Assembly: GCF_056746865.1 (NCBI RefSeq)
Contig: NZ_CM163382.1
Strand: one strand, 5' to 3'
DNA: 64,000 bases
The notes under the pieces were generated by a model. The model searched no databases. It was not told the origin of the DNA and was given only the letters and a program-made list of their open reading frames with translations. Both the position numbers and the translations under genes were made by a program. Shown here piece by piece: positions 4,116-15,289 of this stretch (position 1 is the first letter of the stretch; each line of letters opens with the position of its first letter).

Positions 4116-4667
4116 TTATTTCGTTGTACCCACAGGTTCAGTGGTTTCATTATTACCTGGCGCAGCAGCTGGCGCATCGCCACTATTCTTATTGTCATCG
4201 CCTTTACTACCGTAAAGGAACTGACCAATAAGATCTTCCAGCACCATCGCAGACTTGGTGTCCTGAATTGTATCGCCATCCTTCAGGATAGCAGTCCCCA
4301 GTTCCGGGTCTTCAAAACCGACGTTTAATGCCAGATATTGTTCCCCCAGCAGGCCGGAAGTACGAATGCTCAGCGAACTGGTATCAGGAATGTGGTTATA
4401 ACGTTGTTCAATTTCCAGCGTTACGCGCGGCAGATAGGTTTTCGGGTCCAGCGTAATATCCGCCACCCGGCCCACAACAACACCACCAATGCTGACCGGA
4501 GAGCGCGCTTTCAGGCCGCCAATGTTATCGAACGTCGCATAAAGCGTGTAGGTCGGTTCAGTACGTATGGACGTCACGTTCGCCGCCTTCAGGCAAACAA
4601 ACAGCGCCGCCAGTAGTGCTGCTAATAAAAAGATACCCACCCAAATTTCATTTTTTTTCGTTTGCAT
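4116..4667 (-). CDS. mlaD: Mla MCE-domain inner-membrane protein
   Basis: Start at internal Met MQTKKNEIWVGIFLLAALL… (183 aa) of ORF 4116..4682. Confidence 0.9.
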   Translation of the reverse strand: MQTKKNEIWVGIFLLAALLAALFVCLKAANVTSIRTEPTYTLYATFDNIGGLKARSPVSIGGVVVGRVADITLDPKTYLPRVTLEIEQRYNHIPDTSSLSIRTSGLLGEQYLALNVGFEDPELGTAILKDGDTIQDTKSAMVLEDLIGQFLYGSKGDDNKNSGDAPAAAPGNNETTEPVGTTK

Positions 4668-4671
4668 GAAC

Positions 4672-13320: not shown

Positions 13321-14175
13321 ATGGTACTGATGATCGTCAGCGGACGTTCAGGTTCAGGTAAATCTGTCGCCCTGCGTGCGCTGGAAGATATGGGTTTTTA
13401 CTGCGTGGATAACCTTCCCGTAGTGTTGTTACCCGATCTGGCTCGAACTCTGGCCGATCGCGAGATTTCTGCCGCCGTCAGCATTGATGTTCGTAATATG
13501 CCGGAGTCACCAGAAATATTCGAACAGGCGATGAGTAACCTGCCTGACGCTTTCTCACCGCAACTCCTGTTCCTGGATGCCGACCGTAATACCTTAATTC
13601 GTCGTTACAGTGACACGCGCCGACTGCATCCGCTTTCCAGCAAAAACCTGTCGCTGGAAAGTGCTATCGACAAAGAAAGCGATTTGCTGGAGCCTCTGCG
13701 TTCGCGAGCGGATCTGATTGTCGATACCTCAGAAATGTCCGTTCACGAGCTGGCAGAAATGCTGCGTACCCGTCTGCTGGGTAAACGTGAACGTGAACTG
13801 ACCATGGTCTTTGAGTCTTTCGGCTTCAAACACGGTATCCCTATCGATGCAGATTACGTCTTTGACGTGCGCTTCTTGCCGAACCCGCACTGGGATCCGA
13901 AACTGCGTCCAATGACAGGTCTTGATAAGCCCGTCGCCGCGTTCCTCGACCGCCACACAGAAGTACACAATTTTATCTACCAGACGCGAAGCTATCTTGA
14001 GCTATGGTTACCTATGCTGGAAACCAACAACCGTAGCTACCTGACGGTCGCCATTGGTTGTACCGGCGGGAAGCACCGTTCGGTGTATATTGCAGAGCAA
14101 CTGGCAGACTACTTCCGCTCGCGCGGTAAAAATGTCCAGTCACGCCATCGTACGCTGGAAAAACGTAAACCATGA
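13321..14175 (+). CDS. rapZ: RNase adaptor protein RapZ (P-loop NTPase)
   Basis: 284-aa ORF; Walker A GRSGSGKS near N-terminus. Confidence 0.9.
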
Positions 14176-14444
14176 CCGTCAAGCAAACTGTTGAAATCAC
14201 AAACAAGCTGGGCATGCATGCCCGGCCTGCAATGAAGCTGTTTGAATTAATGCAAGGTTTTGACGCTGAAGTGCTGTTACGTAATGACGAAGGCACCGAG
14301 GCTGAAGCCAACAGCGTTATTGCGCTGCTGATGTTGGATTCTGCCAAAGGACGGCAGATTGAAGTTGAAGCGACCGGTCCACAGGAAGAGGAAGCACTGG
14401 CCGCCGTTATCGCCCTCTTTAACTCTGGTTTTGATGAAGATTAA
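14172..14444 (+). CDS. npr: nitrogen-related HPr-like phosphocarrier NPr
   Basis: 90-aa [27 protein letters not shown]… (HPr fold, active His); 4-nt overlap with rapZ. Confidence 0.9.
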
Positions 14445-14589
14445 TCTTCATCACTTTGACATTCAAATCCCTTCAAGCTCCCCCGGCAATAAGAAAAGCG
14501 CGTACTGAAATCGTTCTCAATCAACGTCAATTGTACATTTCGTGCGCTTTTTACTTTCAGAAGAACCTTAAGAAAACCTTAAGAAGCAT

Positions 14590-14606
14590 TGTTTAGGTTT
14601 CGTTTA
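14590..14606 (+). promoter_or_regulatory. PhoP-box-like direct repeat upstream of yrbL
   Basis: TGTTTAGGTTTCGTTTA = (T/G)GTTTA-N5-(T/C)GTTTA about 50 bp upstream of the yrbL ATG. Confidence 0.5.
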
Positions 14607-14656
14607 AGTTAATCGACCATACTGGAGATCGTCAGAAAATATTTCCAGGAGATGGC

Positions 14657-15289
14657 ATGATTCGCTTATCTGAACAAAGTCCCCTGGGCACCGGAAGACA
14701 TCGGAAATGTTATGCGCATCCGGAAGATGCCCAACGCTGTATCAAGATTGTCTACCATCGTGGCGATGGTGGCGATAAAGAGATCCGCCGTGAGTTAAAG
14801 TACTACGCGCATCTTGGTCGCCGGTTAAAAGACTGGAGTGGAATACCGCGCTATCACGGTACCGTTGAGACGGATTGCGGAACCGGTTATGTCTACGATG
14901 TGATTGCAGATTTTGACGGCAAACCCTCCATTACGCTGACCGAATTTGCTGAACAATGCCGTTACGAAGAAGACATTGCACAACTGCGCCAGATACTGAA
15001 ACAGCTGAAGCGTTATTTGCAGGATAACCGTATCGTGACGATGTCGCTGAAGCCGCAGAATATCCTCTGTCACCGCATCAGTGAGTCAGAGGTTATCCCC
15101 GTCGTCTGCGACAACATTGGTGAAAGCACATTGATTCCACTGGCGACCTGGTCGAAGTGGTGTTGTCTGCGTAAGCAAGAGCGGTTATGGAAACGATTTA
15201 TCGCCCAACCGGCGCTGGCTATTGCCCTGCAGAAAGATCTGCAACCTCGTGAGAGCAAAACGCTGGCCCTCACTTCGCGCGAAGCTTAA
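14657..15289 (+). CDS. yrbL: PhoP-regulon protein YrbL
   Basis: 210-aa ORF in the expected position; PhoP-box-like repeat upstream. Confidence 0.8.

Follow-up and report, generated by a model that had tools for sequence, protein, structure and literature searches.

A short perfect tandem repeat lies directly upstream of a PhoP-type box in front of the yrbL gene of Escherichia coli, and the question raised by this locus is which regulator the repeat serves and how it acts beside PhoP. The window, meaning the whole stretch of DNA that was analysed, comprises 64,000 nucleotides, and its positions 14560–14610 read GAAGAACCTTAAGAAAACCTTAAGAAGCATTGTTTAGGTTTCGTTTAAGTT. According to the annotation underlying the genome match, the locus is the npr–yrbL intergenic region of E. 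coli, 212 bp in length. The 301 bases around the motifs have a match in 5425 of 5426 complete E. coli genomes and are 100% identical to those of O157:H7 and related strains. The control region of yrbL is an already known promoter, activated by PhoP and repressed by PmrA (BasR in E. coli); the additions made here, namely the orientation of the BasR box, alleles with one or three repeat units and an invariant element farther upstream, are minor. The region is bounded by two genes:

14172–14444, plus strand: npr (ptsO) coding sequence, last gene of the rpoN operon and same-strand upstream neighbour (open reading frame list and RefSeq annotation).
14657–15289, plus strand: yrbL coding sequence, 210 amino acids, PF10707 'PhoP regulatory network protein YrbL' (open reading frame list and annotation).

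The initial annotation had taken TGTTTA-GGTTT-CGTTTA for a PhoP box and had mentioned that yrbL is reported to be regulated by PhoP, and both points stand. The motif lies exactly at 14590–14606, and a pattern search with the relaxed form (C/G/T)GTTTA-N5-(C/G/T)GTTTA returned it as the single exact match in 64 kb, for 0.02 expected. Under the stricter (T/G)GTTTA consensus the box has one mismatch, the C at 14601; (T/G)GTTTA-N5-(T/G)GTTTA with one mismatch allowed has 2 matches in the window for 0.70 expected, which is not surprising when taken alone. This C falls within a published (C/T/G)GTTTA subclass of PhoP boxes, and the yrbL allele of K-12 and Shigella has a perfect TGTTTA…TGTTTA box. The elements of the promoter proper are as follows:

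14590–14606, plus strand: PhoP box TGTTTA-GGTTT-CGTTTA (pattern search; position and spacing as in the footprinted Salmonella yrbL box; conservation across genera).
14618–14623, plus strand: −10 hexamer CATACT (invariant in the alignment and in further genera; same hexamer and spacing as in Salmonella yrbL).
14625–14631, plus strand: interval of the probable transcription start (the Salmonella 32-nt leader transferred to the ATG at 14657, or the usual 6–7 nt past the −10).

Work of the Groisman laboratory describes, at Salmonella yrbL, one PhoP box in direct orientation, with CATACT 11 nt downstream of it ('architecture I', with activation of the class II type). S1 mapping and footprinting there gave one PhoP-dependent start and a 32-nt leader. 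Comparison with mapped PhoP sites had been suggested at the outset, and it reveals the same hexamer and the same gap, 11 nt (14607–14617) separating box and CATACT in the window. The arrangement in the window is a single direct PhoP-type repeat over the −35 position, 11 nt before the −10 and so within the 11–12 nt typical of this architecture. In Shigella, phosphorylated PhoP shifts a yrbL fragment in gel-shift assays, and a phoPQ deletion mutant expresses yrbL at 0.02 of the wild-type level, a 50-fold drop. PhoP regulation is in this way documented in the literature by S1 mapping and footprinting in Salmonella, and by gel shift and deletion in Shigella. The initial annotation had also considered that the start might lie upstream of its motifs; the start mapped by S1 in Salmonella, with its 32-nt leader, lies downstream of them. 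A consensus scan for promoters and terminators over 14400–14720 on both strands found nothing, including no sigma-70 −35/−10 pair, a result that is expected for an activator-dependent promoter and uninformative about it. Folding of the leader RNA (14625–14680) yielded no structure (z = +1.4). Judged by motif and position, 14590–14606 is the predicted PhoP box of yrbL, an activator site that would replace the −35 element.

The repeat next to this box had been described as a tandem decamer. The decamer ACCTTAAGAA does occur twice, at 14565–14574 and 14576–14585; one A stands between the copies, so that it is not a tandem decamer, and the real unit is the 11-mer AACCTTAAGAA. This unit is present in two perfect tandem copies, with a spacing of 11 in the repeat search and a period of 11 in Tandem Repeats Finder, and a pattern search showed that the two copies are its sole occurrences, the rest of the 64 kb having none. 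Chance is no plausible source of either motif, the PhoP-type box or the repeat. A period of 11 bp, or one helical turn, typifies the sites of response regulators of the OmpR/PhoB family. Each copy contains a CTTAAG hexamer:

14564–14574, plus strand: first copy of AACCTTAAGAA, with the distal BasR/PmrA hexamer CTTAAG at 14567–14572 (repeat search, 100% identity; pattern search).
14575–14585, plus strand: second copy of AACCTTAAGAA, with CTTAAG at 14578–14583 beside the PhoP box (repeat and pattern searches).

The resulting CTTAAG-AAAAC-CTTAAG at 14567–14583 has no mismatch to the PmrA/BasR hexamer pair with its 5-bp spacer and 11-bp period. When one mismatch was allowed in CTTAAG-N5-CTTAAG, this site remained alone in 64 kb, compared with 0.06 expected. 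The published PmrA box consists of CTTAAG and xTTAAT half-sites separated by 5 bp and bound head-to-tail by a PmrA dimer. The earlier remark that the PhoP box fails to account for its neighbour is therefore borne out; the repeat, which had been left unidentified, is on sequence grounds the predicted BasR (PmrA) box of yrbL.

CTTAAG is self-complementary, so that in E. coli the orientation of this box can be read from the spacer and flanks only. The extended motif YTTAAKnTTnnYTTAAKnTT is matched on the minus strand, and TTAAnnTT-N3-TTAAnnTT has one match in the window, on the same strand. Read on the minus strand, the orthologous site is CTTAAG-GTTTT-CTTAAT-ATT in Citrobacter and Pluralibacter and TTTAAG-GTTTT-CTTAAT in Salmonella; both are canonical asymmetric boxes, which settles the orientation of the E. 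coli box as that of the minus strand:

14564–14583, minus strand: extended BasR/PmrA box CTTAAGGTTTTCTTAAGGTT, inverted relative to yrbL (zero mismatches to YTTAAKnTTnnYTTAAKnTT, on the minus strand only).

For comparison, the promoters of BasR targets in K-12 were taken from the annotated genome and scored against YTTAAKnTTnnYTTAAKnTT:

eptA: CTTAAGGTTGGCTTAATTTT, 0 mismatches, directed towards the gene.
arnB: CTTAAGGTTAAGTTAATATT, 1 mismatch, directed towards the gene.
pmrR: CTTAAGGTTCACTTAATCTC, 1 mismatch, directed towards the gene.
waaH: CTTAATAGTTTCTTAATACA, 3 mismatches, directed towards the gene.
yrbL: CTTAAGGTTTTCTTAAGGTT, 0 mismatches, directed opposite to the gene.

The yrbL box thus resembles those of eptA, arnB, pmrR and waaH in its pair of hexamers with an 11-bp period and in the extended motif CTTAAGGTT-nn-YTTAAKnTT. 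Its two half-sites are both of the CTTAAGGTT type, whereas BasR-activated promoters combine CTTAAG with CTTAAT. The geometry differs as well: in BasR-activated promoters the box occupies the −35 position, 10–13 nt from the −10, and faces the gene, an arrangement that is not found at yrbL, where the box is inverted and lies upstream of the PhoP site. Such a position is consistent with the repressor-site role reported for it, as at pmrD. In the K-12 eptA promoter (minus strand, positions 4635–4668 of the extracted locus) a third, inverted hexamer is present upstream of the BasR box, and the palindrome CCAACCTTAAG-AA-CTTAAGGTTGG found there includes the 11-mer AACCTTAAGAA of yrbL.

Both boxes are kept in at least seven genera of enterobacteria. 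When the upstream region was aligned with those of six further Escherichia lineages, four Citrobacter and S. arizonae, the surroundings diverged, while three features proved invariant or nearly so: the TTAAG-AAAAC-CTTAA core, CATACT, and the GTTTA/TTTA cores of the PhoP box. More distant yrbL loci were located through the protein. In S. enterica, Siccibacter and Superficieibacter, the PmrA box, PhoP box and CATACT occur at the E. coli spacings, the PmrA box starting 22–23 bp ahead of the PhoP box and CATACT lying 11 nt past the latter. In Pluralibacter the PmrA box is kept and the PhoP box is degenerate, and in 'Erwinia sp.' CPCC 100877 and Cedecea colo the PmrA box is flipped towards yrbL and located farther away. 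Enterobacter hormaechei has a yrbL-like gene (60% identical; positions 550–700 of the extracted locus) that is not next to npr; it is preceded by a PhoP box, TGTTTA-ATGTC-CATTTA, with CATAAT, and by a degenerate PmrA box, CTTATG-N5-CTAAAG. Judged by these motifs, the paralogue may be a copy that answers to PhoP alone.

Within E. coli the exact 32-mer 14553–14584, which spans the repeat, is present in 5165 of 5426 complete genomes (>95%). The initial annotation had allowed that its repeat might be unconserved; this figure, and the conservation of the hexamers and spacer across genera, indicate the opposite. The exact 66-mer haplotype of K-12 (TGTTTA…TGTTTA) occurs in 3119 of the 5426 genomes and the CGTTTA haplotype of the window in 603, while most of a further 1511 combine a GATTT spacer with CGTTTA, so that C at 14601, in the second PhoP hexamer, is carried by about 2100 of the 5426. 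The yrbL promoter is polymorphic within the species at window positions 14601, 14597 and 14585; the PhoP spacer is GGTTT or GATTT, and AAGAAG or AAGAGG directly follows the box.

Two exceptional alleles change the number of repeat units, each in one genome of 5426. ST131 strain 4993 (NZ_CP103557.1, locus positions 150–170, equivalent to window 14564–14585) has a single unit of AACCTTAAGAA, the other being exactly deleted, which leaves one BasR half-site, and O157 strain 493/89 (NZ_CP038412.1, locus positions 77–109) has three. Unless they are assembly errors, these are natural repeat variants, and the ST131 allele represents either a natural loss of the operator or such an error. With two units in at least 5165 of 5426 genomes and variants limited to singletons, the repeat is not a hypervariable tandem repeat of the contingency-locus kind. 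These singleton alleles do show that slippage happens, and together with the perfection of the duplication they could be taken to mean that the repeat is a functionless product of slippage, or else the site of another factor, for example RcsB. We find this scarcely credible. Genera with different flanks and an imperfect repeat still keep the hexamers and their 5-bp spacer, as would be seen for a binding site under selection, and this excludes a neutral duplication; moreover, the two-unit form prevails in >95% of E. coli genomes and the BasR motif has zero mismatches.

What is known of regulation agrees with a BasR site. Three papers from the Groisman laboratory state that PmrA represses the E. 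coli yrbL promoter, and PmrA binding is also stated; direct repression by PmrA is taken from later statements by the laboratory behind Zwir et al. 2005 (PNAS). The yrbL promoters of both E. coli and Salmonella are described as having PhoP and PmrA sites, which in Salmonella are ~24 bp apart. In the window the four hexamers start at 14567, 14578, 14590 and 14601, placing the boxes 23 bp apart from centre to centre, in agreement with the published value. In iron-adapted populations of E. coli B, basR, eptA and arn increase and yrbL ranks with the most strongly decreased genes; a fall of yrbL while the BasR regulon rises is the direction expected under repression by BasR.

The box could nevertheless be read as the site of a co-activator of class I type, through which BasR would assist rather than repress yrbL. 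Its centre lies about 50–55 bp upstream of the probable start, where some activators work, and a table drawn from regulatory databases of E. coli names two regulators of yrbL, BasR and PhoP, and gives BasR without a sign. This reading is improbable, considering that repression is stated in three papers, that yrbL falls as the BasR regulon rises and that the box faces away from the promoter, unlike that of every BasR-activated promoter examined.

Taken together, the region 14564–14606 is very probably a dual-input promoter of yrbL, activated by PhoP and repressed by BasR (PmrA). The motifs, their spacing and conservation, and the match to the BasR box come from the present analysis, activation, binding and repression from the literature, and the way in which repression is achieved is our proposal. 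Several points weigh against the dual-input reading: class I activation is in principle conceivable from a site near −50, the E. hormaechei paralogue has a PhoP box accompanied merely by a degenerate PmrA box, the sign of BasR is absent from the regulator table and the E. coli start is transferred from Salmonella.

The promoter has close relatives among known systems. It is the yrbL promoter of Zwir et al. 2005 and 2012, described as PhoP-activated and PmrA-repressed (a 'bi-fan'), with the same locus, PhoP box, 11-nt gap and PmrA spacing; nothing essential differs, the strain of the window having C for T at 14601. The pmrD promoter of Salmonella (Kato, Latifi and Groisman 2003) is alike, with a direct PhoP box ~12 nt before the −10 and a repressing PmrA site upstream of it that produces negative feedback. 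The distance between PhoP and PmrA boxes is ~38 bp in Salmonella pmrD as against 23 bp at yrbL. A search of the 109 bp ahead of pmrD in E. coli K-12 found no PmrA box at up to 3 mismatches. The ugd promoter of Salmonella, which has sites for PhoP, PmrA and RcsB, likewise combines PhoP and PmrA boxes; unlike at yrbL, they are ~65 bp apart and PmrA activates.

The geometry suggests how the two regulators would share this DNA. With a start at about 14625–14631, the PhoP box extends from about −40 to −20 and the BasR box from about −60 to −40. The proximal BasR hexamer is 6 bp from the first PhoP hexamer and the four hexamers follow a nearly continuous 11-bp phase; the small gap and the shared phase imply that two dimers would be neighbours facing the same side of the helix. 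On the minus strand the BasR unit reads TTCTTAAGGTT, and it is similar to TTGTTTAGGTT, the PhoP unit of the plus strand. The similarity of units on opposite strands makes the whole 47 bp a quasi-palindrome, with 22-nt arms that are 73% complementary and a centre near 14587, and it would bring the two regulators head-to-head. The 22-nt inverted repeat was rejected as a hairpin: it follows from two similar, opposed 11-mers and lies upstream of the transcription start.

At low Mg2+, phosphorylated PhoP would bind 14590–14606 at the −35 position and activate yrbL. When BasS/BasR is active, through Fe3+, mild acid or PmrD, a dimer of phosphorylated BasR on 14567–14583 would lower the transcription of yrbL, and it might do so in two ways. 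BasR could sterically exclude or destabilise phosphorylated PhoP, or it could occupy the DNA upstream of a class II activator that would otherwise be usable by the C-terminal domain of the polymerase alpha subunit. In its inverted orientation BasR would turn its activating surface away from polymerase, and no recruitment of polymerase would be expected. The flipped boxes of 'Erwinia sp.' CPCC 100877 and Cedecea colo may mean that orientation is irrelevant. The circuit would keep yrbL on at low Mg2+ and damp it under active BasS/BasR, the same design as that of pmrD.

The inverted box could also point to a different target, namely a divergent promoter on the minus strand, activated by BasR, whose transcript would overlap the 3′ end of npr in antisense, with any effect on yrbL arising as a by-product. 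The extended motif does lie on that strand, and a TAAAAA hexamer (14553–14548) occurs 13 nt past it, a spacing similar to that of eptA. This candidate −10 is unconserved: K-12 has TGAAAA at this place, E. whittamii AGGAAA and Citrobacter AAGAAA, for which reason the divergent promoter was rejected. In addition, the promoter scan is empty on both strands, the sequence downstream has neither an Rfam family nor an open reading frame, and in two genera the box is directed towards yrbL. Such a promoter is very unlikely.

Conservation extends beyond the two boxes, to a short element farther upstream:

14531–14550, no strand assigned: invariant 20-bp element TTGTACATTTnGTGCnCTTT (invariant alignment columns; 3′ arm of a weak hairpin after npr in the strain of the window).

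Every genus with the E. coli-type arrangement has this element, which precedes the BasR box by a constant ~35 bp and the PhoP box by 58 bp, as seen in Escherichia, Citrobacter, Salmonella, Superficieibacter, Siccibacter and Pluralibacter. The yrbL paralogue of E. hormaechei, which has no neighbouring npr, carries it too, 58 bp ahead of its PhoP box. In the strain of the window, the region of TTGTACATTTnGTGCnCTTT can pair with 14494–14501 to form a hairpin followed by a run of U. A long imperfect hairpin, AAAAGCGC…GCGCTTTT, with the U-run (14493–14552), has a folding energy of −18.1 kcal/mol (z = −2.0), and the K-12 version one of −9.2 kcal/mol (z = −0.46). This hairpin may terminate npr in the strain of the window. 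A search of Rfam at a permissive threshold over 14100–14800 gave matches at chance level only, with E-values of at least 0.29 and far under the gathering scores.

The explanation of TTGTACATTTnGTGCnCTTT as simply the terminator of npr was rejected. The K-12 hairpin is weak, a separate strong terminator precedes the element in Siccibacter and Pluralibacter, and the element is kept in the paralogue without npr; its persistence beside separate terminators and at the npr-less gene argues that it is not simply a terminator. Comparison of TTGTACATTTnGTGCnCTTT with consensus sequences of OmpR, RstA, CRP, FNR, sigma-54 and the marbox gave partial matches only. A Fis site was likewise discarded: the element fits G-N2-YA-N5-TR-N2-C, as do 16% of intergenic shuffles, and the comparison was made post hoc. 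From its distribution, TTGTACATTTnGTGCnCTTT looks like a part of the yrbL control region, and its fixed 35-bp distance in at least six genera, together with its presence at the npr-less paralogue, suggests that it may be the site of a factor. On this basis we tentatively offer the idea, which we hold to be rather doubtful, that TTGTACATTTnGTGCnCTTT is a candidate site of a third input and, as a separate point, that BasR, otherwise an activator, becomes an anti-activator at yrbL through the head-to-head placing of its box and that of PhoP.

Beyond correct annotation the locus has little to add, as it represents a published, textbook-type convergence of two response regulators on one promoter. 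The inverted box, the alleles with one and three units and the upstream element are possible test material for the conversion of an OmpR-family activator into a repressor.

A few observations concern the sequence around the yrbL start and the gene itself. A Dcm site, CCAGG, at 14645–14649 overlaps the ribosome-binding site of yrbL, and a Dam site, GATC, at 14627–14630 coincides with the probable start region; in a preprint, yrbL is among the five most significantly up-expressed genes of a dcm deletion mutant. A YrbL fragment that is 98% identical to the E. coli protein is encoded on a 420-bp contig, NZ_JUET01000135.1, labelled Tannerella forsythia ATCC 43037; this yrbL contig is almost certainly E. 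coli contamination of that assembly.
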